Made by a program: the position numbers and the translations under genes. From a virus, in the IMG/VR virus record IMGVR_UViG_3300017766_005465, positions 1 to 64,000 of that record: 64,000 bases of DNA; one strand, given 5' to 3'. Within the stretch, counting starts at the first letter, position 1. Each line of letters begins with the position of its first letter. This document shows positions 2,130 through 17,395 of the stretch, one piece after another. The notes beneath the pieces were generated by a model. It had not been told where the DNA came from and ran no database searches. It was given only the letters and a program-made list of their open reading frames with translations.

Positions 2130-3404
2130 TCAAGAACCCGTAACCAGTTGTGAAAGTTGCTCCTTGATGGAGGAGCGGAGGTCCTTGAGGCCGCGGAGCA
2201 GGGCCCGCAGTTCCTTGACGCACTTCTTGTCCGCGGCTTCGCGGCACTGCCGCAGGTTCTCCGTCTCCCTCTTTATCTCAGAGTGGGCCTTAGAGTCCTC
2301 GATAGCGAGATCTTTGCACTTCTCAAAAACCTCAATGTCGGAGACTCTCTCCATGCAAAGAGTCCGATTCCGCCCGGTGAGGTCGGGGTGGGAGTTCTCG
2401 AGTCGGGCTTTGCTGGCCCTCTTAAAGTAGGAGTTCTTATCCTCGTGCCAGGTAGCAGGGATCTCAGGGAGAAAGAGTCCTCTGCGAAGCAGGAAGACTC
2501 GCGCGGATTCCATGTGATCTGGCCGGTTGGATGGAGTTGTGCTGTTAAGTACTTTGAGTAGGCGCCGGGTATCTTTGTCCGTAAAACGCCATTCAGTGTC
2601 CTCGTCATATAGGTCGAAAAATCGTAAAGGTGTGCCTGGGTAGAGGTTGTCGCCAAGATCGCCGTACTCCACTTTGAAGTCGTAGCAGCCTCTGGCGGAG
2701 GTGATATGCATTCCCTCCTTACGGAGGTAGTAGTCGCAGACCTCGCGCTCCGAGCGAAGCCGCGGAAGCCAGGGGCCGGTATTGGCCCAGATGATGTCGT
2801 GGGGGTCGGAGACGAGCCCCTGCCAATCCCCGTCCAGAGTACCGAGAAGGATCTGGCGTTTGCCCAGCTTGGAACTCTTGCGGGCTTTGCGCTTCAGCCT
2901 GCAGACGTGGCCGGCGATGTCGTCCGCTTCGAAGAACTCCTTGGCGAAGTAGTGGAAGGTGGAGCCGGGGGAGTTGATGTACTTGTACCCCTCCTCCTGA
3001 ACAAGATCGAAGAAGGCCGTTTTTTCGCCCCTCCCGCCCTTGTACTCGGGCATGGAGAGCTTGTGCGCCTCGATATGCCTCCAGTACCCCTTGCCACTCA
3101 CCGCGGCCTCGGAGAAATCCTCCGACAACACTCCCTTGAAATCGTCCGCCAGCAGGCCCACGAAGGGCACAGGAGGGAGCATGTCAGGGCCTCGGTTGAG
3201 TCTGTAGGCCCACATTGCTCTCAGGATCTTCCTGAGCTCCTCCTCTGACCCACGCGAAGCATCCTCAGCCGCCTCCGCGTAATTACATACGAAGTGCGCA
3301 CAAACCTTGAAATCAATGACGTAGACCGGACAATGAGGATCGAGGAGGGGCTCAAATACATCTTCGAGTAGAGTGGTGGTGTGGTCGTATTCCGGTAGGG
3401 GCAT
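2130..3404 (-). CDS. 5'-3' exonuclease / flap endonuclease (T4 RNase H / T5 D15-like)
   Basis: 424 aa. FEN-family acidic motifs: VIDFK, YKGGR, FEADDIAG, LDGDWQGL, GDLGDNL. Confidence 0.8.
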   Translation of the reverse strand: MPLPEYDHTTTLLEDVFEPLLDPHCPVYVIDFKVCAHFVCNYAEAAEDASRGSEEELRKILRAMWAYRLNRGPDMLPPVPFVGLLADDFKGVLSEDFSEAAVSGKGYWRHIEAHKLSMPEYKGGRGEKTAFFDLVQEEGYKYINSPGSTFHYFAKEFFEADDIAGHVCRLKRKARKSSKLGKRQILLGTLDGDWQGLVSDPHDIIWANTGPWLPRLRSEREVCDYYLRKEGMHITSARGCYDFKVEYGDLGDNLYPGTPLRFFDLYDEDTEWRFTDKDTRRLLKVLNSTTPSNRPDHMESARVFLLRRGLFLPEIPATWHEDKNSYFKRASKARLENSHPDLTGRNRTLCMERVSDIEVFEKCKDLAIEDSKAHSEIKRETENLRQCREAADKKCVKELRALLRGLKDLRSSIKEQLSQLVTGS

Positions 3405-4249
3405 CAGTTAGCAACGTCCATCTTCGTGGCGGGATGGGAGGTGTAGTCGATGAGCTCGAAGTCGGTCTCCGGATCGAGGTCGAAGATGGGTTTGGTGTTG
3501 TTGATCCAGACGTCGCAAGAGGCCATGGGGGAGTTGGTGATGATGGACTTGATGGCGAGTTCGTTCTGGGAGTAGATGTGGTTGTTGGCCGAGGCGAACA
3601 TCACGTAGCGTGGTGCCAACTCGGCGTCCTGTGCCATCTTGGTAACAAGGAGGCCGTAGCGGAACATATCCAACGGCACCCCTGTGGCCATGTCGTTGCT
3701 CCGGGCATTGACCATCAGATCAAGATAAGTCCCATCGCTAGAAAAAGTGAGGTTAGGATGACAAGGAGGGCAGTGAAGAGAATCGTAAGCAGGGTTAAAA
3801 GTCTGAAGCACCAGTTGGCGATTCGTCGGGTTGGTGCAGAGCTGCTCCCAGATCCACTTGAGTTGGTCGAATGGTTCGGCACGGAAGTTCTCCCACTGCA
3901 TGTTCTGCTCGGGGCAGACTTGAGGCCAGGCTCGCCAGCTCCGTCCGTAGGCTCCGGCCAGGCGGCCCTCAGCGTCGGCGAGGAAGTCCCAGAAGTGCTT
4001 GGCGGGCCCGAGATTGCTGACCCTGTAGTCCCCATTGACGTCCCACATGAACTCCCGGAAGAGGTTGCGGACGGGCATCTTGCGCAGCGTGAGAGCGGGG
4101 AAGCCCAGTCGCAGGTCGACCTTGATGGTCTGGCCGAACATCTGCTTGTAGCGGAGGTTATTGCGGCCTACGACCTCAGTGCCCTCGTCGAGGATCTCTC
4201 GGGCGATCTTGATGTACTGGAGGTCGAAGGGGAGGAGGGGTTGGGGCAT
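3404..4249 (-). CDS. Thymidylate synthase-fold enzyme, probable dCMP hydroxymethylase/methylase
   Basis: 281 aa. PPCH (Cys163), RSNDMATGVPLD and NHIY. The residue 31 aa after the catalytic Cys is Asp194, where dUMP-specific ThyA has Asn. Confidence 0.8.
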   Translation of the reverse strand: MPQPLLPFDLQYIKIAREILDEGTEVVGRNNLRYKQMFGQTIKVDLRLGFPALTLRKMPVRNLFREFMWDVNGDYRVSNLGPAKHFWDFLADAEGRLAGAYGRSWRAWPQVCPEQNMQWENFRAEPFDQLKWIWEQLCTNPTNRQLVLQTFNPAYDSLHCPPCHPNLTFSSDGTYLDLMVNARSNDMATGVPLDMFRYGLLVTKMAQDAELAPRYVMFASANNHIYSQNELAIKSIITNSPMASCDVWINNTKPIFDLDPETDFELIDYTSHPATKMDVAN

Positions 4250-4302: not shown

Positions 4303-4542
4303 CTAGGCCCCGAAATACTTGTCAATGAGGAGGCGCTGGAGCTTAACGAACTTACGGAGAGGGTAGTCGTACTCCATGGCCCACTGGAGCAGGGACCGAC
4401 TCCCCATCTCGATGAGTTCCATCTGAGGGTCCTCGGCGATGACATCCTCCTTGGCGACGAAGAACTTCTCCCCGTCGTGGGCCACTACGAGCCATGGCAC
4501 ATCCTTATCAAAGCGGATGGGCTTTGTGATACGTTCGATCAT
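4303..4542 (-). CDS. Hypothetical protein
   Basis: 79 aa ORF whose start overlaps the upstream stop (ATGA), with genome-typical codon usage. Confidence 0.65.
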   Translation of the reverse strand: MIERITKPIRFDKDVPWLVVAHDGEKFFVAKEDVIAEDPQMELIEMGSRSLLQWAMEYDYPLRKFVKLQRLLIDKYFGA

Positions 4543-7082
4543 TGTCTATCTTGTTTTTGGTGAGCTTTGATAATATCGTCGGTGGACTTGGCTTTGGAGA
4601 GCGCCCTAACTTGGGCCAGAGTCAGTCCACCTAGGTCTGGGGTGTTGTACCCGGGGCCTTTCGGCGTGGCTGGGGCGCCAGGAACGCACGTCTTACCGGA
4701 GCGCGTTGTTCCTGCCGGGCAACGCCCCAGCACTTTCCCCTTATAGAATACCATGGAATCGGCGTAATCGGCACCCTGGCCCTCCGTGTATGCGGCACGT
4801 TTGGCCTTGAGGATTTCCATGTAGTCCTCGTAAGTGGGTTTTTTCTTTTCCATCTCTTCAAACTCTAGTTCAGAAAAAGTTCTTCCAGATCCGGCACCGT
4901 ATTCTTTCGCGTTTGCTCGGCGAAGTCTATTGGCAAAGTCTGGATGGAGCACCATCTCGTGTTTTATGTTAGAACCATAGCCGACCCCGTCCTCCCTTAC
5001 ATTTACTTTAGCAAGAGGAAGAAGAGGCCCATCGCCGGCTTTACCGATCCATCCGAGATAGGGAGACCCATTCTCATCTATGGATACCTTAAAACCGGTT
5101 TTAATCTCATCAAAGTTTGTTGTTCCAAAAATATCCCGGCAGGTTTGAGTATCAAAAGATAGATCTCCTATTGCCATAACCTCTTTACCCTCAGCAACAT
5201 CTCTGATCGGAAAATTATTTTTTAGCTCTGTTAACATTCCGTCTCTTAAATTAGGATCCGTGTTAATTGCTTCTACGGCGCTTGAAACGAAATCTTTATG
5301 CGCTTGTTGAACTTCATCTCTGTAGCCTTCTACTCTTTGGTTAATTGCTGCTAAGTGAATAAGCTTTCTAGTAGATCTATTTAGAGTTTTTGAGGACGCA
5401 ATTTTATCTACTAATCCAGCCCAGTCTGTATTAGCGTTTTTCATTTCTTTTTGGGCTTTTCTAACAAGTTCCGCGTTTTCGGTAGAAGTTTCTAGGGCTT
5501 CGGATTCTAGGTTTTTTGCCTTCTCCCTAGCCCCTAGAACTCTCTGCTTACTTTCAGCGTCTAAGTTTCTGAATTCTGTTCCTTTTATCTTTAGATCTTC
5601 AGGGTCAACACCGTCTCTTTGGAGGAGTGACGAAAATATCTTTGCCTTGTCAGTTGGAATAGAGGAAATGTCAAACTGTTTTATTTGGTCTATGTTCTCT
5701 GAGAGAACTTTTCTAAGTCTCTTGTTTTGATTTTCAGCATAAACTTGACTGTTGTAAGAATCTTCAGGTTTTGCCCACTGTTCAGATTCAACAGAGTTTA
5801 TAGTCTCTAAAGCTTTATTCCACTTTTGATTTATCTCTGGTCCATCTTTCTTGCGCGGAAATTGAACTCCCAGCTCGTTTATTATTGCCGTTCGTATTTT
5901 CTGCGCTTCTAAATAAGCTTTTGCTCGCTCATGATAAGGAGAATCGGGATTTTCCGCATGGGATGTTACAATAAACTGACCGTATTGACCAGCTCCAGAA
6001 TTCAAAAAATTTACGCGCGTGTCTTTTTTAAGGGAGGGCTGATGTAAGGATCCATCAGACAGCTTTAAATAGATATCCGTAGAGAACCCTTTCTCGCTAT
6101 CATAATCCTTCATTCCTAACTCTTCCACTTCATCTTTAGTATCCCAAGCGCCTCCTATAATTGATACACCACCTCCCTTATTTGATTTAATAGAGTTCAG
6201 TATGGCAGTGCGGTTGTCTTGAGCAGCTTGAAACCAGTCTGGGGTAATTATCTGATTTTTTACTTTATTCTCTTTCTGGAACTTTAAAGCGTCCGAAATA
6301 ACAGATTGAAGCTTTTTAGACTGCTGTTCAGGTAGGCCAGTGAATGCAAGAGTCATTAACTCTCCACCTTGAGCGAAGATTTTTCCGGCTCCTCCTGGAA
6401 CTTCGCCTCCAAAGTAGGACCAGCCAATTTTATCCGATCCTGAAGTTACTAGCATTCTTGACAAAGCATCAAGATGTCTTGGTGGTATAGCAGTTTGATT
6501 TCCAATAGCTGCTCTAAGATCAACAAATTCTGTTCCGTTCCACTTACCCTCAGCTTTTATTTTGTCTAGGAATTGCTGATTTGTCTCTGTAAGTTCTACT
6601 TTAAAGTTATCCCCGATCTCTCTAGATGCGCCAGTTGCTTTTTCGGTGGATGGTGAAGACTTTGTTTTTTGTTCCGAAGGTTCCGGTTTTGGCTCAGGCG
6701 CAGGTTCGGGTTTGGACTGAGGCTTAGGTTCTTGAGGTTTTTCTTTTACAGTAGGCCCTTTCCAAACTCCTGATTTTCTGGCCTGCTCCATACGTTGAGC
6801 GGGGGATGCCGGAGCTTGCTGAGGGGCTTTTCCTTGACGGCAGGTTCCTCTACCATCATCGTACCATCCAGAGGGGCACCTTTGAACCTGGTGGGCGGGC
6901 TTACCGTCGTGGGCGGGCATGGTTTTCATCTGACCCGCGGCAAAACTTGCTACTTCGGAAAACCCAACAACATCCCTACCCTCAAGGGCGGGCATCTTGG
7001 CCTCGCCCTCGAGCGGAGCCTCCGCCACCCACTCAGTTTTGTCCGCGATTCCCCAATCCGAGGGGGCATAGTCCCCAAGCAT
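4539..7082 (-). CDS. Large hypothetical protein with a putative PD-(D/E)xK-like nuclease core; possible internal virion protein
   Basis: About 847 aa. TDIYLKL...HQPSLKK motif in an AT-rich core, Pro/Glu/Lys linker, two small Cys motifs (CPSGW...TC, CPAGT...TC). GGGTTTAAAG upstream. Confidence 0.6.
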   Translation of the reverse strand: MLGDYAPSDWGIADKTEWVAEAPLEGEAKMPALEGRDVVGFSEVASFAAGQMKTMPAHDGKPAHQVQRCPSGWYDDGRGTCRQGKAPQQAPASPAQRMEQARKSGVWKGPTVKEKPQEPKPQSKPEPAPEPKPEPSEQKTKSSPSTEKATGASREIGDNFKVELTETNQQFLDKIKAEGKWNGTEFVDLRAAIGNQTAIPPRHLDALSRMLVTSGSDKIGWSYFGGEVPGGAGKIFAQGGELMTLAFTGLPEQQSKKLQSVISDALKFQKENKVKNQIITPDWFQAAQDNRTAILNSIKSNKGGGVSIIGGAWDTKDEVEELGMKDYDSEKGFSTDIYLKLSDGSLHQPSLKKDTRVNFLNSGAGQYGQFIVTSHAENPDSPYHERAKAYLEAQKIRTAIINELGVQFPRKKDGPEINQKWNKALETINSVESEQWAKPEDSYNSQVYAENQNKRLRKVLSENIDQIKQFDISSIPTDKAKIFSSLLQRDGVDPEDLKIKGTEFRNLDAESKQRVLGAREKAKNLESEALETSTENAELVRKAQKEMKNANTDWAGLVDKIASSKTLNRSTRKLIHLAAINQRVEGYRDEVQQAHKDFVSSAVEAINTDPNLRDGMLTELKNNFPIRDVAEGKEVMAIGDLSFDTQTCRDIFGTTNFDEIKTGFKVSIDENGSPYLGWIGKAGDGPLLPLAKVNVREDGVGYGSNIKHEMVLHPDFANRLRRANAKEYGAGSGRTFSELEFEEMEKKKPTYEDYMEILKAKRAAYTEGQGADYADSMVFYKGKVLGRCPAGTTRSGKTCVPGAPATPKGPGYNTPDLGGLTLAQVRALSKAKSTDDIIKAHQKQDRQ

Positions 7083-7153
7083 ACTCAAGCTCTACTACCT
7101 AGTCTTTAAACCCGTGTCTTTCAGTCTAAAGACCCCCGTAAACCAATTCTACC

Positions 7154-8353
7154 ATGTCATCATACACCCACGGCCACATCATCCCCCTGGTAGGAGGGAG
7201 CGTGGTCGGCACGACCCTGGCCCTGGAGAAGGATCCGGAGTGGATCGCGTCCTGGAGCGATTCCTTCGGCGCCAATGATCAGTACTGCCTGAAGTACTTC
7301 GACAAGACCCCCTTCCACAACCTCGATGAGGGTAACTACCCCACCAAGTACGTTGATATCGTCACCTCGCTGCCGCCCTGCGCCGGCCTCTCCATGGCCA
7401 ATACCACCTCTGGTGAGAAGGTGAACAACCCGCGTGGTTGCTCGGCGCCCAGCAACATGCACATGTACCACGCGGCGGAGTTCGCCATGACGAAGATCAA
7501 GCCCAAGGCCATGATGGTGGAGAATGCACCCGCTCTCTACTCGAAGATGGGAGAGGAGTTTGCCGAGCGGATCAACTCCCTAGCCGCCGAGCATGGCTAC
7601 TCCATGAGCCTGGTGAAGACCACCTCGATCAATCACGGGGTGCCCCAGGAACGGACTCGTTCGTTCTTCTTCCTATGGCAGGGTGACAAAGTCCCTGTGC
7701 TTGCGCCTGTAAAGCGGGACTTCGAGCCCCTCCATAAGTTCCTGAAAGCTGGCGGATTCGCTAAATCCGAGCCCGTCAACTCCAAGGGTGTGCCTAGCAC
7801 CGATCCGCTCTGGCAGTTTATCGAGGGGAAGTACGCTGGATGCACGAAGCAGGACATCCTCTCCAAGGTGGCGGCGAATCGCATGACGTCCGTCTGGAAC
7901 GTTATCTACGAGTCGGGATGGTTGGAGGAGGCCGCTAGAGTGGTCAAGGGTGAGAAGGCTAGTCGGTGGCTTAACTACACACTCGAGAAGAAGCGCGCCG
8001 GCAAGAACATCATGGACGGGAGCATGAAACTGGCGTGGTATAGAACGCAGAGCCTGATGTGGAAGTCACTCCCCTATCTCATGCATCCCCACGAGGACCG
8101 CTGGCTCACGGTGGCTGAGGGCCTCGCTCTGATGGGATTCCCGAAGGACTACGCGGCGAAAGTCCACATCCCCACCAAGCACAGCAACGTAATCTGCCAA
8201 AACGTCCCGTCCACAACTGCTCGGGATTGGGTGCTAGAAATTGTCGAGGCTTTAAACGGCAACAGAGAGTGGGTAGAAAGACCCAATGGCGCCATTCTGA
8301 GACAGAATAACACTGCCTCTAAGAATCCTATGGAGCCGATCTGGGCGCTCTGA
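7154..8353 (+). CDS. DNA cytosine-C5 methyltransferase-like protein with atypical cofactor-binding motifs
   Basis: 399 aa. Motif IV PPCAGLS, VI VENAP, VIII PQERTR, IX RWLTVAEGLALMGFP. Motif I reads IIPLVGG and motif X reads ICQNVP. Confidence 0.85.
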   Translation: MSSYTHGHIIPLVGGSVVGTTLALEKDPEWIASWSDSFGANDQYCLKYFDKTPFHNLDEGNYPTKYVDIVTSLPPCAGLSMANTTSGEKVNNPRGCSAPSNMHMYHAAEFAMTKIKPKAMMVENAPALYSKMGEEFAERINSLAAEHGYSMSLVKTTSINHGVPQERTRSFFFLWQGDKVPVLAPVKRDFEPLHKFLKAGGFAKSEPVNSKGVPSTDPLWQFIEGKYAGCTKQDILSKVAANRMTSVWNVIYESGWLEEAARVVKGEKASRWLNYTLEKKRAGKNIMDGSMKLAWYRTQSLMWKSLPYLMHPHEDRWLTVAEGLALMGFPKDYAAKVHIPTKHSNVICQNVPSTTARDWVLEIVEALNGNREWVERPNGAILRQNNTASKNPMEPIWAL

Positions 8354-8357
8354 GCGC

Positions 8358-8924
8358 TCAGTACACCAGTTTGTTTTTGATCTGCATCATCCCACCGAGC
8401 AGGGCCTGAGCCTCGCTCCCGTCCGGCTCGTGGAAGATGATCTCCGCGGTACTGGCCACGAACTCCTCTGGGGTCTGTGGCCTTTCCTCGTATGTCTTCT
8501 CGTAGAGCTCGATGGCCTGGTCCACTGTGGCTTCGACTCGCGCCTCGATGACCTCGTCGGTCATAGTGAAGGTCTTGTGAAGCGCCTCCGACTGCACCCA
8601 CTTGCGCTGGACAAAGTCCACAAGGGCGAGCAGTTCCTTCCGGGTGAGATTCTCGTCCTCCACGGCTTTCAGTAGCATGGAGATGATGAGCCGGGTCTGC
8701 GACTCGGAGTAGTTCTTGTGCTCGGCATTTCTCAACCAGAAGATGTCCAGCTCGTCGAAGAGCGTCTTGAGGTTCCTGGCGCCGATGCGCTTTATCGCCT
8801 TCCTGTTGACGAAGTCTAGGATGAGGTCGAGGGCGGGTTCGAGTAGGCCCCACAGCACGGCGGCCTGGATGACGAGGCCCCTCTCCGATGGTCTCTTCTT
8901 CCCGAACGAAAAGTAAAAATCCAT
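8358..8924 (-). CDS. Hypothetical protein
   Basis: 188 aa helical ORF with genome-typical codon usage, convergent with the MTase-like gene. Confidence 0.65.
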   Translation of the reverse strand: MDFYFSFGKKRPSERGLVIQAAVLWGLLEPALDLILDFVNRKAIKRIGARNLKTLFDELDIFWLRNAEHKNYSESQTRLIISMLLKAVEDENLTRKELLALVDFVQRKWVQSEALHKTFTMTDEVIEARVEATVDQAIELYEKTYEERPQTPEEFVASTAEIIFHEPDGSEAQALLGGMMQIKNKLVY

Positions 8925-9346: not shown

Positions 9347-9832
9347 TTAATCGAATGCGTACTGAAGCCACTCCGGAGACCCAGAGTCTATCAGACTTAA
9401 CAGGAACCTATTCGCGGGCGCGCTCGGCTTTCTAGTCAGTCTCATCCCAGTCTGCTCGAGTGGGATGTCTCCCTTACGCGTATTGCATGTCGAGCACGCC
9501 ACGACCAGATTCTCCCACGTGTCCTTGCCTCCCCTGCTCCTAGGGATCACGTGGTCGATGGTCAGGCGTCTTGTCGATCCGCAGTACTGGCACTTGTGCC
9601 CGTCGCGCTTGTATATGAGGCTGCGGGAGGGTTTGAGCGAGTTGATCCTGGAGAAGGGTATCCTTATGTACTCGGTGAGCCGGATGACTTTAGCCGATAC
9701 GATCAGGGCTTTCTCCTTGAGCAGGAGGATGATGGCTCTCTTCCAGCTCGTGACATGGAGAGGTTCGTAGGACGCGTTGAGCACTAGGACCTGGGTGTTA
9801 GGCCTGATCTGTTTGACGTTTTCCGGTGCCAT
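9347..9832 (-). CDS. HNH endonuclease (McrA-like, cyanobacterial type)
   Basis: VLVLNASYEPL, RDGHKCQYCG, TIDHVIPRSRGG, NLVVACSTCNTRKG. Confidence 0.9.
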   Translation of the reverse strand: MAPENVKQIRPNTQVLVLNASYEPLHVTSWKRAIILLLKEKALIVSAKVIRLTEYIRIPFSRINSLKPSRSLIYKRDGHKCQYCGSTRRLTIDHVIPRSRGGKDTWENLVVACSTCNTRKGDIPLEQTGMRLTRKPSAPANRFLLSLIDSGSPEWLQYAFD

Positions 9833-9980
9833 CGCAGACTCCACATTCTACTATTTCGTTGGGTAATACACGCCCGTCGGGCGAGTTTTTCTCGATAACG
9901 AGGAATCCCCTGCCAGCGCAGTTCCTACAGGATGATTTGTCGATCTTACTGATGAGGCGTTGGCGGGGGACGGGGGCCAT
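9798..9980 (-). CDS. Small DnaJ-type zinc-finger protein
   Basis: 60 aa with CRNCAGRG and CGVCDGTG (CxxCxGxG) repeats. Confidence 0.65.
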   Translation of the reverse strand: MAPVPRQRLISKIDKSSCRNCAGRGFLVIEKNSPDGRVLPNEIVECGVCDGTGKRQTDQA

Positions 9981-9984
9981 GGGT

Positions 9985-10467
9985 TTAGAACGATGCTGAG
10001 TCGCAGATACCCTGAAGCTCTTCGGAGGGGGACGCGGTGACGGAGGCGTCTCCGTTCACGTTATGATCCGGCCGGACTTGATTGTAGGCCTGCTTCTCCG
10101 CGGCGATGGCGGAGAACTCCTCGCCGGTCACGCCGGCGTAGGCCAGGATGGCTCGGTGGAAGAGAAGGATGTCATACATCTCAGCTATAAACTCCCGGCG
10201 GAGTTCGGGTGAGTCCATGTAACTCCGCTCTTTGTTCTTCCAAGAGCGGCGGGGGACGTACACCCGGGCTTCGATCGCTTCCTCCATGAGGTGGCCGAAG
10301 TACTCGATGACTTTCTCGTAGCGGTAGCAGAGCCAGTCCTCGTTGAGGTAACCGTGCGCCGCCTCGTACTTCATCAGCATCTCAGGCCCTACACCACCGA
10401 CCTTGGCGGCGTACTTCTCCTGCGCCTCGAAGCCATCGTTGATGAACTTGACGTAATCGAAATTCAT
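9985..10467 (-). CDS. All-alpha dimeric dNTP pyrophosphatase (dUTPase/dCTPase, T4 gp56-like)
   Basis: 160 aa. EEAIE...SWK...EFIAEMYDILLF...KQAYNQVR pattern typical of the dimeric dUTPase/gp56/MazG fold. Confidence 0.7.
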   Translation of the reverse strand: MNFDYVKFINDGFEAQEKYAAKVGGVGPEMLMKYEAAHGYLNEDWLCYRYEKVIEYFGHLMEEAIEARVYVPRRSWKNKERSYMDSPELRREFIAEMYDILLFHRAILAYAGVTGEEFSAIAAEKQAYNQVRPDHNVNGDASVTASPSEELQGICDSASF

Positions 10468-10516: not shown

Positions 10517-12430
10517 TCAACCCTCGCAGGCGGCACACTCGCTGTATGTCTTCTCCCCCTGACCTAGCTTCTCGGCGAGGTCGGTGTAGCCTCCAACGTA
10601 CTGGTCATTGAGCCAGATCTGGGGCACGGTCTTCCACACCCACTCGGAGTCGGGGACATCGGCCCTATCCACCTCGTTGATGGTCCAGCCCTGGCTACGG
10701 AGAAGGGACTTGGCCATGGAGCAGTAGGGGCACTCCTGCTTGGTGATGATCTTCGCGACCTTCTGCTGGCCAGGAGGCTTCTTCTTCACGAGCAGGGACG
10801 AACTCTTCAGATAGTAGAGGGACTTGAGGCCACCCTTCCAAGCGCTCAGGTGGAGCTTGAAGAGGTACTCCGGCGAGGACTCGGGATCGACGAAAAGGTT
10901 GATGGACTGACCCTGGCAGACGTACCTCTGCCGGTCCGCGGCCTGCCTGATGATCTCAAACTGGTCGATCTCACGCGCCGTCCTGAACACCTCCTTGGTG
11001 TGGTCGTCGATGAACTTGAGATGCTGGATCGATCCTCTGAACTCCAGAATCGACTCCCACGTCTCGTCGGTATTCTTTCCGATCCTTTCGAGGTGCTCCA
11101 CGAGATACTTGTTCTTGCGAACGAAGGTCCCCTTGGCCTGCTTTGCAACGTAGTAGTTCGCGTCGATGGGCTCGATGCCCTCGCTTCCCGCTCCGCAGAT
11201 TACGGAGTTGGATTTGGTGGGGGCGATGGCCATGAGGTGGGTGTGACGGAGCCCGGTACCCTGGCACCATTCCGGCTCGCCGTAGGTGACGGCCATCTCA
11301 CGGGAGGCTTTCTGCGCCTTCTCCTTGACGTACCTGTGAACCTTCTCGTTGAGTTGGCGTGCCTCGGCGGAGGCGAAGGGGAGGTTCTTGGACTGGTAGA
11401 GAGCGTGGAGGCCCATGGTCCCCAGGCCCAGTGCCCTGGACTTGCGGGCGAATCTCACCGCTCTTCCCATGGAGGTGATGCGATCGGCCTTGTGGCAGAA
11501 CTCCTCCACAACAGCGTCGAGGAGGTACACGGCCAGCTCGGGGACGGTTTTGCCAGTGGCCGGGCCGGTCCAGTCCTTCCACTCCTCCCAGCGTGCTAGG
11601 TTGAGAGAGGAGAGAACGCAGACGAAGGTGTGGTTCTCGTCGGTGTGCAGGAAGATCTCCGAGCAGAGATTGCTGAGCTTAACACTCAGTCCTCTCTGAG
11701 TGTAGCATTCCGGATTGGCCTTGTTGGCGTTGTCGATAAAGATGATGTATGGAGACCCTGACACCAGTCTAGATTTTAGCACCTCGCCGAACAACTTCTG
11801 CTTGTCCCTATCCCCAGCAAGCAGGCTCTCTACCCACTCATCGGTGATGGTGATGGCGATGTTACTGTCGATGAAGTCACGTGGGTCGCCCTGCGAGTGG
11901 TCCTTGGAGCGTAAAACCTCCGGAAGATCGGGGTGGTCGATGGGGAGGTAGAGAGCGAAACTGCCGCGCCTCACCCCACCCTGAGACACCACAGCGGCGC
12001 ACTGGTCGTACTGCCTCATCCACGGCACCACGCCAGTGCTCTTCCCACCGGACGAGATGGGTGCCCCGGAGGGTCTGATATTGCCGAAGTAAGTTCCCAC
12101 CCCACCACCGTACTGGGAGAGCGCCGCCGACTCCTTGAGGTGGGAGTAGATGGAGCGCACGGAGTCCGAAATATCATTCGAGTAGCAGCTGATAGGCAGG
12201 CCACGCGAGGTGCCGAAGTTACTAGCCACGGGAGTGGCAAGTCCCAGAAACCCACGCCAGAGCACCTCGAAGATGTCTCCGGAGATCTCGGGGTAGTTGA
12301 GCAGTTTGGCGGCCTGGTTGGCCACACGCTCGTACATCCCCCTGGGCGTCTCGCCCTGATACAGGTAGCCTTTTGAGAGAGTTTTGATGGCTTCCTTGGA
12401 CATCCACTCGGGGACTTGTAACTCGGACAT
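10517..12430 (-). CDS. nrdA: Class I ribonucleotide reductase alpha subunit with a C-terminal glutaredoxin domain
   Basis: ATPV, PISC, SQGGVRRG, SNLCSEI, IAPT, SLYY. These are followed by a Grx domain (CPYC...TVPQIW...VGGY) and terminal ECAACEG. No ATP cone. Confidence 0.95.
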   Translation of the reverse strand: MSELQVPEWMSKEAIKTLSKGYLYQGETPRGMYERVANQAAKLLNYPEISGDIFEVLWRGFLGLATPVASNFGTSRGLPISCYSNDISDSVRSIYSHLKESAALSQYGGGVGTYFGNIRPSGAPISSGGKSTGVVPWMRQYDQCAAVVSQGGVRRGSFALYLPIDHPDLPEVLRSKDHSQGDPRDFIDSNIAITITDEWVESLLAGDRDKQKLFGEVLKSRLVSGSPYIIFIDNANKANPECYTQRGLSVKLSNLCSEIFLHTDENHTFVCVLSSLNLARWEEWKDWTGPATGKTVPELAVYLLDAVVEEFCHKADRITSMGRAVRFARKSRALGLGTMGLHALYQSKNLPFASAEARQLNEKVHRYVKEKAQKASREMAVTYGEPEWCQGTGLRHTHLMAIAPTKSNSVICGAGSEGIEPIDANYYVAKQAKGTFVRKNKYLVEHLERIGKNTDETWESILEFRGSIQHLKFIDDHTKEVFRTAREIDQFEIIRQAADRQRYVCQGQSINLFVDPESSPEYLFKLHLSAWKGGLKSLYYLKSSSLLVKKKPPGQQKVAKIITKQECPYCSMAKSLLRSQGWTINEVDRADVPDSEWVWKTVPQIWLNDQYVGGYTDLAEKLGQGEKTYSECAACEG

Positions 12431-12503: not shown

Positions 12504-13139
12504 CTATGCTGCACTATCTAGTTTGATTCTGTTTGATGTGCTAATTCCTCTTTTTCTTTGAAAAAGACTAAGTGCTCCAGCAGTTGAAATTTTGCCAGTA
12601 GTAGTGCACATCCATTTTTGAGAATTTAATTTGGACAAATGTCCAGATTCTACATTCTTTCTTCCTTGAGTTTTTCCTCCTACTTTTCCTCCCAAACTAG
12701 AGATTCTCTGCAGGTGTCCTGATTGTACGTTTCTCCTACCAACCTCTTTGCACTTTTCAATGTCTCTTATTTGATCTAGTTGTCCGGATTTTGCATTTTT
12801 TCTCCCTTGAATTCTCCCATTCTCCCTGCAACGTTCTGAACCTTTATTAAGTGGTCCGTAGATTCTACCTAAATTTTGGATAAATCCGGTCTCCTTATGC
12901 TTATTACCGGATGTCTTACCACCTTTAGAAGCTCCTAAAAGTTGAACTTCTTTGATAACTTCTTGCTTGTTGTACTGACCGGATAAACCCTTCCAAGCTA
13001 TAAAGTCCTCGCGCTTTTTATGTAAACACCAGTTAGCGTAATGCCACATTGCATGTTGAGTTATTGAAACTTCAATAATGTTGGATAACTCATTAGTGCC
13101 TCCAAGATGCTTAGGAATAATGTGATGCTTATGTTTCAT
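12504..13139 (-). CDS. Free-standing HNH homing endonuclease
   Basis: HKHHIIPKHLGG...N...HAMWH followed by G/K-rich repeats. Strongly AT-rich relative to its neighbours. Lies between nrdB and nrdA. Confidence 0.8.
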   Translation of the reverse strand: MKHKHHIIPKHLGGTNELSNIIEVSITQHAMWHYANWCLHKKREDFIAWKGLSGQYNKQEVIKEVQLLGASKGGKTSGNKHKETGFIQNLGRIYGPLNKGSERCRENGRIQGRKNAKSGQLDQIRDIEKCKEVGRRNVQSGHLQRISSLGGKVGGKTQGRKNVESGHLSKLNSQKWMCTTTGKISTAGALSLFQRKRGISTSNRIKLDSAA

Positions 13140-13545
13140 TTGATTTTTTAATCAGTCCGTCATCCCAAGCTTGTTGTACGTTTTCTGACCTGGTTCCCCA
13201 CTTTAGGTTAGAGATGGAGTTGTTGGTTCCGTCATTGTCCTTATGCAAAATGACAATATGCTCTCCCTGAGGCTTCGGAGGACCGAATAGTTGCATAACT
13301 AACTCGTGAACTTTCGGTTCCTCGCGTTTGCCATCCCAGGTGAGGTTCATTCTCTGGTGCTTGCGATCGTCGTCGCGTGGCTTACGGTTCTGGGTGTCTC
13401 CCTTACGACGAACTTTCCCCCCACTACTGACTTCGTAGGGGGAGTCCTTCCACTGCTTCCATTGTTCGCCAGAGTCGGCGTAGTTACGCCCTCCCTGATC
13501 CCGTCCTCTGACCCTCCAGCCATCGGGTCTTACAAAGTCACTCAT
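13129..13545 (-). CDS. HNH endonuclease (NUMOD4/HNH_3 type)
   Basis: EQWK...YEVSSGGKVR, VHELVMQLF, ILHKDNDGTNNSISNLKWGTRSEN. Start placed at the ATG coupled to the upstream stop. Confidence 0.85.
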   Translation of the reverse strand: MSDFVRPDGWRVRGRDQGGRNYADSGEQWKQWKDSPYEVSSGGKVRRKGDTQNRKPRDDDRKHQRMNLTWDGKREEPKVHELVMQLFGPPKPQGEHIVILHKDNDGTNNSISNLKWGTRSENVQQAWDDGLIKKSNET

Positions 13546-13744
13546 GCCATCTTTCCACGTAGTCGTCGAAACCACCCATCCCGCCGCAGGGTCTTGAGAA
13601 CCTGTCAGGCGGTGGGGAGGTGATCATGTTCTTTCTGTAGCGTTGGATGTAGAGGTCGGCTCTGCGGTCAGTGATGAGGCACACGGTGCCGTGATCGGCT
13701 ACCATAAGCTTGCTGTCTCTATCAGGGTTTGGGTGAATCGCCAT
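13538..13744 (-). CDS. Hypothetical protein
   Basis: 68 aa ORF overlapping both neighbours in the operon. Confidence 0.6.
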   Translation of the reverse strand: MAIHPNPDRDSKLMVADHGTVCLITDRRADLYIQRYRKNMITSPPPDRFSRPCGGMGGFDDYVERWHE

Positions 13745-16331: not shown

Positions 16332-16355
16332 AGTGGTTCTATGCCCGTGAGCGGG

Positions 16356-17294
16356 TCAGAAGTCCAGGTTGAGATCGTTTTCGCCGGTTTCCTGGCGGGA
16401 GAGCAGCAGAGTGGAGCGAATCCGGATCTTGTTGTTCTCCAGTTCCTCCTTGGAGCGCAGGGTCAGCGTCGCGGGTTTCTCGCGAGTGATCTCGGGCTTA
16501 GTGGAGAGGAGCGGACGAATGGAGGAGTGGGCCCATGCACCAGCAACCTGACCCTCTGCGGGGTAGTTGTTGATCATGATGCGGTAGGTCAGACCGTACG
16601 AGGTCTTGCACTGGTAGTAGTTGATCACCTCGTAGGGGACGTTCACATCCAGATCGCGGAAGTCGATCTCGCTATCGGCCTCGACGCGGGCCCCACCCGA
16701 TCCACCACCCTTCACGGTGACTTTCTGCACCAGGACGATGACGTCGTCGGGCTTCTTCTTCAGGAGGGCGTTGAGAGCCTTGGGTTCGGTGGGATTCTCC
16801 CAGTCGCTGAAGCGAACGGCCACCGGCAGGACGAGTTGGCCATCCTCGGTATCGACGCTCAGGAACAGAGCGGGGTCCTCTCCACGGCCGGAGAAGTTGT
16901 AGGAGCCGAACTCGGCCTCGATCTCGGTACCGTCGGGCTTGGTGAAACCACCCTTGACCACGTTCAGAGGAAGGTAGCGCGGGCCCCACTGGATGTAGAG
17001 CTTGCCATCCTCGGTGGCTTCGACGCCCTCAGCACCGGCCTTAAGCACAGGGCCGAAGAGGCGGAAGTAGACGCCATCGCGGGACTTGATGAGAAAGGTG
17101 TTCTCGTCGAGGGGGAGTTCCTCGCCGGTCAGGAACTGGAAGACGGTGTCCAGGTCCTTACGCATCGCCTTAGGCAGGTTAGCGTTGGGGAGCGAGGTGT
17201 ACTCGGAGGTGTATTCCCGGCCACTGAGGGGGGCAAGCTGCGGAGCGTTGGTGCTCAGGTCAATGGTCGTGACGGAAAATGTAGCTGTGGACAT
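16356..17294 (-). CDS. Hypothetical, probably highly expressed protein; putative ssDNA-binding protein
   Basis: 312 aa, beta-rich, acidic tail ending NDLNLDF. Has both promoter classes upstream and its own terminator. Start moved to ATG 17294 because TGGTATAAT lies in the upstream extension. Confidence 0.5.
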   Translation of the reverse strand: MSTATFSVTTIDLSTNAPQLAPLSGREYTSEYTSLPNANLPKAMRKDLDTVFQFLTGEELPLDENTFLIKSRDGVYFRLFGPVLKAGAEGVEATEDGKLYIQWGPRYLPLNVVKGGFTKPDGTEIEAEFGSYNFSGRGEDPALFLSVDTEDGQLVLPVAVRFSDWENPTEPKALNALLKKKPDDVIVLVQKVTVKGGGSGGARVEADSEIDFRDLDVNVPYEVINYYQCKTSYGLTYRIMINNYPAEGQVAGAWAHSSIRPLLSTKPEITREKPATLTLRSKEELENNKIRIRSTLLLSRQETGENDLNLDF

Positions 17295-17395
17295 TGTGGT
17301 TCTCACTGTGTAGGTGTCTCTTGGGAGTGAAGTTTCTCTCTTCGACTCTTTAGTATTATACCACGAAAACCCCACAACGGGGCAGTCGCTGTATG

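Follow-up and report, generated by a model that had tools for sequence, protein, structure and literature searches.

The 64,000-nucleotide stretch of viral DNA analysed here (the window; positions 1 to 64,000 of the IMG/VR record IMGVR_UViG_3300017766_005465, which spans 118.5 kb and is estimated to be 73% complete) encodes a protein of the C5-cytosine-methyltransferase fold that represents a large and virus-restricted family, for which MTL is used as a working name throughout. In MTL proteins, the residues for covalent catalysis on cytosine are intact, the motifs on the side of the cofactor S-adenosylmethionine (SAM) are rebuilt and near-invariant, and all ThyA homologues found in the flanks of the MTL genes carry the signature of enzymes acting on deoxycytidine monophosphate (dCMP). 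MTL probably does more than plain methylation, and a chemistry directed at 5-hydroxymethylcytosine (5hmC) after replication is the explanation that we tentatively prefer. Whether MTL furthermore constitutes a natural class of enzymes that no longer transfers methyl groups from SAM, and instead uses C6 covalent catalysis to derivatise 5hmC or to attach a group other than methyl to cytosine, comes close to an even call. The C5-methyltransferase fold as such is already known; the chemistry would be categorically new if the SAM-independent reading holds.

An earlier note, made from the letters of the sequence, had described intact PC, EN and QxRxR motifs alongside departures from the canonical motifs I and X, and both observations held: PPC, ENAP and QERTR were located in the protein, and motif I reads IPLVGG and motif X CQNVP (Table 1), both variants being near-invariant across the family. 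The Pfam family PF00145 matched above its threshold (6.9e-19, 68.9 bits at a cut-off of 22), with the match confined to profile positions 44-312 and the motif I-III part of the profile unmatched, and TIGR00675 gave 50.9 bits, under its cut-off of 100.65. A fold search with the predicted model recovered the two-domain C5-methyltransferase fold, aligned the protein from residue 1 and yielded a full match to SAM-dependent enzymes, with CmoX (PDB 8YF3) as the top Foldseek match. The protein is 69% identical to the product of an S-TIM54 gene annotated 'DNA methyase', and, to go by a figure legend in the comparative paper on TIM5 phages, the gene is labelled there only as 'DNA meth' (PMC10087341).

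Column counts were taken from an alignment of 153 sequences (the query, six close relatives and 146 cluster representatives), in which C76, E123, R167 and R169 were present without exception. Judged by these motifs and the predicted model, MTL is a C5-methyltransferase-fold protein whose residues for flipping of the cytosine, attack of Cys76 on C6 and holding of the base (Glu123, Arg167 and Arg169) are intact. This invariance bears on the reading that MTL is non-catalytic on DNA, be it as a base-flipping reader or regulator of modified DNA or as an enzyme acting on RNA, which we regard as very improbable. Such a role would be in keeping with the MTL gene of TIM5-like phages being transcribed alone, opposite to its neighbours, from a conserved inverted-repeat region; however, the four residues conserved in 153/153 and a near-invariant pocket would be unexpected for a mere binder, and both motif IX and the target-recognition region show the conservation seen in DNA enzymes.

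The differences from canonical C5-methyltransferases (M.HhaI, M.HaeIII, DNMT1; PF00145) concentrate on the cofactor side. Canonical motif I reads F-x-G-x-G-G, and an acidic motif II residue is near-universal among these enzymes. MTL has P-L-x-G-G instead, with P11 in 145, L12 in 147, G14 in 149 and G15 in 147 of the 153 sequences, so that leucine replaces the first glycine of GxGG, while I, V, Q or M occupies the position of the canonical phenylalanine. Among 120 close homologues, [IVL]-P-L-[VI]-G-G was seen in all full-length sequences inspected; a simple motif I pattern matched 101 of the 120, and the inspected cases among the other 19 were N-terminally truncated. In place of the acidic residue after strand 2, serine is found at position 33 in 133 sequences (threonine in ten, aspartate in one), followed by an aromatic residue 34 in 139, the protein of the window having Ser-Trp here, and no nearby column is conserved as acidic in the 153 sequences; the motif II column was placed from the end of predicted strand 2 (residues 30-33 of the model) and not by superposition on a SAM complex. 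Further downstream, N41 (144/153) and D/E42 (148/153) are conserved. Motif X holds Q349 in 150 and N350 in 146 sequences, giving Q-N-V-P for G-N-x-V, and hhalign set the Q-N of MTL opposite the G-M of a canonical family. The PC-Q of canonical enzymes has become PC-A or PC-S (A in 115, S in 30 of 153); in M.HhaI, both this motif and the G-N that has become Q-N lie close to the C5 of the target.

Near-invariant throughout the alignment are P-L-x-G-G, Ser-aromatic, F-x-x-N-D/E, C-A/S-G-L-S, N-x-W/H-M, E-N-A-P, H-G-x-P-Q-x-R-x-R-T/S-F, H-P-x-E-D-R and Q-N-V-P-x-x-T-A, of which F-x-x-N-D/E, N-x-W/H-M and H-G-x-P-Q are conserved in addition to what canonical enzymes share. The first 65 residues did not align with canonical methyltransferases, neither in a search of the profile against PDB sequences nor in a profile-profile comparison, which aligned residues 66-363 only. 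A lineage-specific decay of motif I was considered and ruled out, since the variant motifs stay near-invariant across the 153 sequences even where identity drops to about 27%. The cofactor side thus appears to have been rebuilt and then held constant, a pattern better explained by a conserved ligand site than by decay.

The second line of evidence comes from the genomic surroundings. The earlier note had named co-occurrence with Asp-type ThyA homologues as a test in advance, and 260 IMG/VR loci encoding MTL were therefore fetched with up to 10 kb per side (three wide scans contributed their best 80 each, to which 23 close relatives were added; not a random sample); their six-frame open reading frames (ORFs) were searched with a ThyA profile that had been started from the homologue in the window and iterated. 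A ThyA-family gene was present in the flanks of 133 of the 260 loci, and all 133 had Asp at the position of Escherichia coli N177, none Asn. At the D169 position, Asp was found in 132, the remaining one being truncated there, and at the L143 position in 113, with Cys in 17 (TIM5-like loci) and three truncated there. The column assignment recovered Cys148, Asp145, Asp171 and Asp179 of the T4 enzyme, and one T4-like homologue matched T4 dCMP hydroxymethylase (PDB 1B49) at 1e-83. According to the diagnostic residues set out in PMC13326640, Asp177 marks dCMP as substrate, an acidic residue 143 marks hydroxymethylation and Asn169 marks a 5-hydroxy-dCMP synthase; a 5-hydroxycytosine pathway of the kind described there was ruled out by the Asp at the D169 position in 132 of the 133 homologues, the other being truncated.

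The recovery of ThyA rose with the length of the locus, from 4/38 below 6 kb over 24/52, 26/55 and 33/47 to 46/68 at 20 kb or more. When whole records were searched for 31 long loci without ThyA in the flanks, nine had a ThyA-family gene, seven of them Asp-type; one match was truncated, and the 22 records without a match are fragments estimated to be 6-30% complete. The only complete record (G024; 360 kb with direct terminal repeats) encodes both an Asn-type ThyA and an Asp-type enzyme, a combination also present in T4. An Asp-type enzyme also lies beside MTL in five of the six loci from metagenome-assembled genomes (MAGs) and in the cultured Pseudoalteromonas phage vB_Psh_XG4 (XG4). Not a single ThyA-family gene was present in the control, which consisted of 80 loci (1.21 Mb) surrounding a canonical C5-methyltransferase like that of Bacillus phage BMBtp14 and represents one canonical lineage, mostly on small, temperate-type phage contigs. 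Conversely, MTL was found in 22 of 80 loci seeded with T4-like hydroxymethylases (the seeds being sequences from MTL loci) and in 14 of the 42 whose downstream sequence reached 6 kb or more; MTL therefore depends on the pathway and not the reverse, and is optional to it. The association spans at least three backbones and ThyA subtypes, namely TIM5-like (long, thymidylate-synthase-like, Cys143), T4-like (short, gp42-like) and large-genome viruses (long, Asp143). With 133/133 Asp-type neighbours, 0/80 in the control and several unrelated viral backbones, the proposed co-occurrence was borne out, and a lack of co-occurrence, which the earlier note had named as refuting, was not observed. As far as fragmentary contigs can show, MTL was not encountered apart from a hydroxymethylase.

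In T4-like loci, the gene order is gp47, gp46, a PRA-PH/MazG-like pyrophosphatase, the hydroxymethylase, dCMP deaminase and a variable island, followed by a DexA-like exonuclease or DUF3310 protein, a conserved phrog_1574 protein, gp45, gp44, gp62, RegA, dUTPase and Hsp20. MTL lies in the variable island between hydroxymethylase/dCMP deaminase and gp45, where relatives lacking MTL carry other genes; unlike canonical C5-methyltransferases, it thus sits beside dCMP hydroxymethylase genes and not beside restriction genes. Its island companions, in varied combinations, include a DNA alpha-glucosyltransferase (PF11440, 1.9e-79), a 420-residue, weakly glycosyltransferase-like protein that occurs in 118 loci and directly upstream of MTL where mapped, a fusion of nucleoside triphosphate (NTP) transferase and kinase, a kinase-like protein, a cytidylyltransferase and an epimerase. 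XG4 has the order hydroxymethylase, kinase-like protein, NTP-transferase-kinase fusion, glycosyltransferase-like protein, GT47-like protein, MTL and an NTP pyrophosphohydrolase (phrog_173, 2.8e-24). No TET dioxygenase was found among the annotated neighbour clusters, several clusters being unannotated and no search having been aimed at the TET family. From this placement within islands for 5hmC glycosylation, MTL would appear to be an accessory cassette of a phage pathway that replaces cytosine by 5hmC.

Some islands on T4-like and large viral contigs (L031, L160, L151, L158 and L166) additionally encode a 5-hydroxymethyldeoxyuridine DNA kinase helical domain (PF18723, 2.3e-11) and an inositol-1-phosphate-synthase-like protein (PF01658, 4.3e-22), companions that hint at unexplored 5hmC hypermodifications beyond glucosylation.

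The family was viral in every source examined, and MTL is in this sense a large, virus-restricted branch of the C5-methyltransferase fold. A profile search of 1.84 billion cluster representatives returned 3280 proteins when the threshold was E<=0.001, 642 with it lowered to 1e-10 and 379 with it lowered to 1e-30, the alignment beginning at the first residues in most of the 150 best matches, and the ESM Atlas clusters nearest to MTL are 100% viral. Three scans of IMG/VR with sub-family alignments gave between 505 and at least 594 confirmed matches each. Among 50,697 isolate phage records, only five TIM5-like records and XG4 encode MTL, Bacillus phage G showing a distant match in which the N-terminal part is unaligned; a scan of 185,579 prokaryotic species, each represented by a single genome, yielded six loci, all on MAG contigs. 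Many MTL contigs of 20-90 kb (the records behind L109-L185) are estimated to be only 6-30% complete, and therefore point to very large viral genomes as their source. A look-up of the members' clusters returned no names, and a literature search found no paper on the family or its link to dCMP hydroxymethylase, the supplementary gene tables of PMC10087341 and the alignments of PMC8256090 and PMC13326640 lying outside its scope.

The phage represented by the window is syntenic with the TIM5-like cyanophages (genus Aurunvirus) and shares with them the order primase, flap endonuclease, ThyA, a large hypothetical protein, methylase (on the opposite strand), HNH, NrdA and NrdB. The Asp-type ThyA neighbour assumed at the outset is real: the homologue, 2.9 kb from the MTL gene, has PLD where E. 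coli ThyA has PFN, and with Asp at the N177 position and Asp kept at 169 it carries the dCMP-substrate signature and is the presumed source of 5-substituted dCMP. Outside the window, the same record encodes an alpha-glucosyltransferase homologue next to a 386-residue ORF; it scores 1e-13 against a PF11440 protein, its own PF11440 score being 20.6 bits and below the cut-off of 25, and a beta-glucosyltransferase (PF09198) gave no match in the record. This homologue implies a sugar-modified cytosine in this phage. A further, unannotated ORF 1.6 kb from MTL is conserved in TIM5-like phages and is predicted to form a helical bundle of the MazG/DCTPP1 type with invariant EE..E and E...E..D clusters, which makes it a candidate deoxycytidine triphosphate (dCTP) pyrophosphatase; Foldseek returned no significant match for it (best E 0.095), and the MazG family PF03819 had no match in this record, S-TIM54 or XG4. 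From the Asp-type ThyA, the alpha-glucosyltransferase homologue and the MazG-like fold together we infer a complete replacement of cytosine, and the predicted gene set suggests DNA with glucosylated 5hmC or, given the Cys at position 143 and the thymidylate-synthase-like C-terminus of ThyA, possibly with 5-methylcytosine (5mC).

According to the preferred explanation, MTL would be a post-replicative enzyme, its substrate being phage DNA in which the cytosines bear a 5-CH2OH group already. Cys76 would add to C6 of a flipped 5hmC and thereby activate the exocyclic carbon, in the manner of thymidylate synthase and of the SAM-free side reactions known for C5-methyltransferases. A co-substrate bound where the remodelled pocket once accommodated SAM would then take the place of the hydroxyl or of a group attached to it. 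The product would be a second kind of C5-modified cytosine at sites left bare by the glucosyltransferase. The earlier note had invoked an in vitro precedent for SAM-free chemistry of C5-methyltransferases on 5hmC, and the results reported in PMC7176277 back this: in the absence of SAM, such enzymes are able to hydroxymethylate cytosine, as M.HhaI does at GCGC sites, and to replace the hydroxyl of 5hmC by thiols, a coupling carried out by an engineered M.SssI.

The principal competitor is a SAM-dependent C5-methyltransferase with a divergent pocket that writes 5mC on rare phage cytosines that have escaped modification or on host DNA, and in one variant could mark host DNA for attack by the host's own type IV nucleases, to which glucosylated phage DNA is resistant. 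We consider this somewhat doubtful, though clearly conceivable. It involves the simplest chemistry and agrees with the PF00145 score above threshold, the full fold match to SAM-dependent enzymes, the complete set of catalytic residues and the retained Asn of motif X. Set against it are the missing acidic residue of motif II (Ser/Thr in 143/153), the Leu for the first Gly of GxGG in 147/153 and the N-terminal 65 residues that canonical profiles fail to align; moreover, the flanks contain ThyA of the dCMP type only (Asn-type in 0/133), where unmodified phage cytosine should be scarce, and the canonical control lacks any ThyA link.

Several observations nevertheless weigh against a SAM-independent chemistry on 5hmC. 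The positions presumed to flank the adenine are still hydrophobic or aromatic in MTL (I/V10, W/Y/F34, M/I/L104), and because these presumed adenine-sandwiching residues appear retained, use of SAM is quite plausible; Ser33 could still bond the ribose, so that MTL may bind SAM. One metagenomic member (P0230, 598 residues) is C-terminally fused to a zf-CXXC domain (6.6e-7), the only fusion partner found among long members. Elsewhere, zf-CXXC domains read unmodified CpG, and this fusion points to unmodified cytosine as the substrate, as SAM-dependent methylation would have it. No ThyA homologue was found in the fetched DNA of 127 of the 260 loci, mostly short contigs or fragments that are 6-30% complete, and one record, 26% complete, showed no ThyA other than an Asn-type one when searched as a whole. 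Relatedness among the MTL loci also means that the counts do not represent independent events. Only the hydroxymethylase accompanies MTL constantly, and no gene for making a co-substrate does so. Finally, the ThyA of the window has Cys and neither Asp nor Glu at the L143 position as well as a thymidylate-synthase-like C-terminus, and thus lacks the hydroxymethylation signature, a combination common to 17 TIM5-like loci and the record behind L025. Its product might be 5-methyl-dCMP rather than 5-hydroxymethyl-dCMP, as for Asp-type enzymes of the Xp12 kind according to bioRxiv 10.1101/2024.12.05.627091.

The constancy of the hydroxymethylase also bears on another reading, namely that MTL is itself a DNA-level cytosine hydroxymethylase with formaldehyde or methylene-tetrahydrofolate as donor, a back-up that makes every cytosine a substrate for glucosylation. 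This appears unlikely. We know of no natural DNA-level cytosine hydroxymethylase, a folate-binding signature was not identified in MTL, and little cytosine would be left to convert in phages with a dCTPase, PRA-PH/MazG-like genes being found in 53 of the 260 loci (cluster c18) and, adjoining MTL, in XG4. On the other hand, no partner of MTL but the nucleotide-level hydroxymethylase is constant, a donor different from SAM could be accommodated in the altered pocket, the zf-CXXC fusion suggests an unmodified cytosine as target, and M.HhaI hydroxymethylates its sites in vitro, as reported in PMC7176277.

The top Foldseek match raised the question of whether MTL is a carboxymethyltransferase of the CmoX type. 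CmoX, the C5-carboxymethyltransferase of Synechococcus phage S-B43, is described in PMC12783734 as keeping Phe25, Glu47-Phe48 and Asp69, which serve the adenosine moiety, and as having replaced the Asn of motif X by Arg350. MTL shows the opposite pattern, with the Asn kept (N350, no Arg) and the adenosine-side motifs changed, and it has LPPC instead of SPPC; this function was therefore ruled out, there being no Asn-to-Arg change and the adenosine-side residues being different. The genomic company differs likewise: CmoX travels with CmoA and an amide ligase (PMC12783734), MTL with dCMP hydroxymethylase, and no CmoA-like gene was seen among the annotated MTL neighbours, no genome search having been aimed at CmoA.

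A close parallel is the 5hmC system of T4 (gp42, the gp56 dCTPase and alpha- and beta-glucosyltransferases), to which the MTL context corresponds in having a gp42-like enzyme, dCMP deaminase, a MazG-like pyrophosphatase, an alpha-glucosyltransferase and gp43, gp44, gp45, gp62 and RegA. The variable slot adjoining gene 42, where MTL lies, holds the beta-glucosyltransferase gene in T4. T4 itself is not known to have a gene of the C5-methyltransferase fold, and unlike in T4, MTL is an extra, optional component (14/42 hydroxymethylase-seeded loci). As in the phage clusters of C5-methyltransferase, TET and glycosyltransferase genes covered in PMC8256090, a C5-methyltransferase-fold enzyme is part of a phage pathway ending in glycosylated 5hmC; however, those clusters make 5hmC on DNA by methylation and subsequent TET oxidation, whereas MTL phages would obtain it at the nucleotide level via the ThyA homologue.

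Table 1. Features of the MTL gene, its upstream region and associated genes of the same record (nt, nucleotide positions in the window unless noted otherwise; aa, amino acids; numbering of ThyA residues as in E. coli).
Feature	Position	Strand	Basis
C5-cytosine-methyltransferase-fold gene (399 aa), 'PLxGG / S-aromatic / QNVP' subfamily	7154-8353	+	
Motif I variant IPLVGG (canonical FxGxGG)	residues 10-15, nt 7181-7198	+	
PPC (motif IV)	residues 74-76; Cys76, nt 7379-7381	+	
ENAP (motif VI)	residues 123-126, nt 7520-7531	+	
QERTR (motif VIII)	residues 165-169, nt 7646-7660	+	
Motif X variant CQNVP (Asn kept, Gly before Asn replaced by Gln)	residues 348-352, nt 8195-8209	+	
dCMP-type ThyA homologue (Cys at 143, Cys146, Asp169, Asp at 177)	3404-4249	-	alignment to E. 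coli ThyA
Alpha-glucosyltransferase homologue (424 aa), beside 386-aa ORF	own record outside window, L003:652-1926, about C1:111247-112521	-	phrog_2888, 2.7e-96
MazG-like all-alpha fold (160 aa), candidate dCTP pyrophosphatase; invariant E61, E62, E65, E91, E95, D98	9985-10467	-	predicted fold
Inverted repeat GTCTTTAAAC (7102-7111) / GTCTAAAGAC (7124-7133), divergent intergenic region upstream of MTL	7102-7133		

The earlier note had further described the MTL gene as standing alone on the plus strand behind a variant of a putative late motif. The first part is sound in that MTL is the only credible plus-strand gene between about 229 and 23939 (a plus-strand ORF at 16341-17330 overlaps a minus-strand ORF matching phrog_25892 at 4e-102), and the same opposite orientation is annotated in S-TIM54. 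The second part found no statistical footing: the octamer GTCTAAAG at 7124-7131 occurs once in the window at 1.79 expected from shuffles, at least one match being present in 82 of 100 shuffles, and the decamer GTCTTTARAC, allowing up to one mismatch, occurs 11 times at 6.0 expected, a weak excess that five of 100 shuffles reach. A late promoter motif was accordingly rejected, with the octamer not above chance and the decamer excess weak. The octamer lies within the GTCTAAAGAC arm of the inverted repeat, which is kept, with A/G variation, in 10 of 11 aligned TIM5-like upstream regions (L025 lacks it) and probably acts as a promoter or operator. A search of 6900-8600 for sigma-70-like promoters gave none. 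Decamers resembling (G/A)TCTTTAAAC recur at 7102, 16285, 17399, 39781, 40862 (minus strand) and other positions, several just outside ORF ends, and may represent a phage promoter element.

Among the neighbouring genes, the 849-residue protein encoded divergently from MTL (4539-7088, minus strand) gave no Pfam or PHROG match and has a low-complexity N-terminal region rich in Pro, Lys and Glu. Three ORFs for HNH-type endonucleases (9347-9844, 12504-13139 and 13129-13575, minus strand; one partial HNH match) flank the ribonucleotide reductase gene and are possibly homing endonucleases. The large subunit of the reductase (10517-12430, minus strand) ends in a glutaredoxin-like CPYC segment, and its homologue in locus L015 matches the Pfam families Ribonuc_red_lgC and Glutaredoxin.

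Whether restriction, CRISPR and other defences succeed is decided by hypermodifications of phage DNA, and these have repeatedly supplied new enzymes for epigenome sequencing, among them T4 glucosyltransferases, phage TETs, CmoX and 5mC-selective deaminases. MTL is a very large, virus-only branch of a textbook family, placed where the textbook substrate, unmodified phage cytosine, should be missing, and it is present in cultured phages, namely S-TIM5, S-TIM54, S-TIM61 and S-TIM66 on marine Synechococcus and vB_Psh_XG4 on Pseudoalteromonas. Should MTL turn out to be an ordinary SAM enzyme, the residues that the C5-methyltransferase family needs at its SAM site would have to be redefined, and the role of a 5mC writer in 5hmC phages would come into question. 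If the SAM-independent reading holds, MTL would represent a new post-replicative step of cytosine hypermodification, probably with a new DNA base as its product, and this in T4-like phages that abound in the sea as well as in TIM5-like cyanophages and large uncultured viruses; a new chemistry on 5hmC or a new donor would mean a new DNA base pathway and a potential tool for 5hmC-specific labelling.

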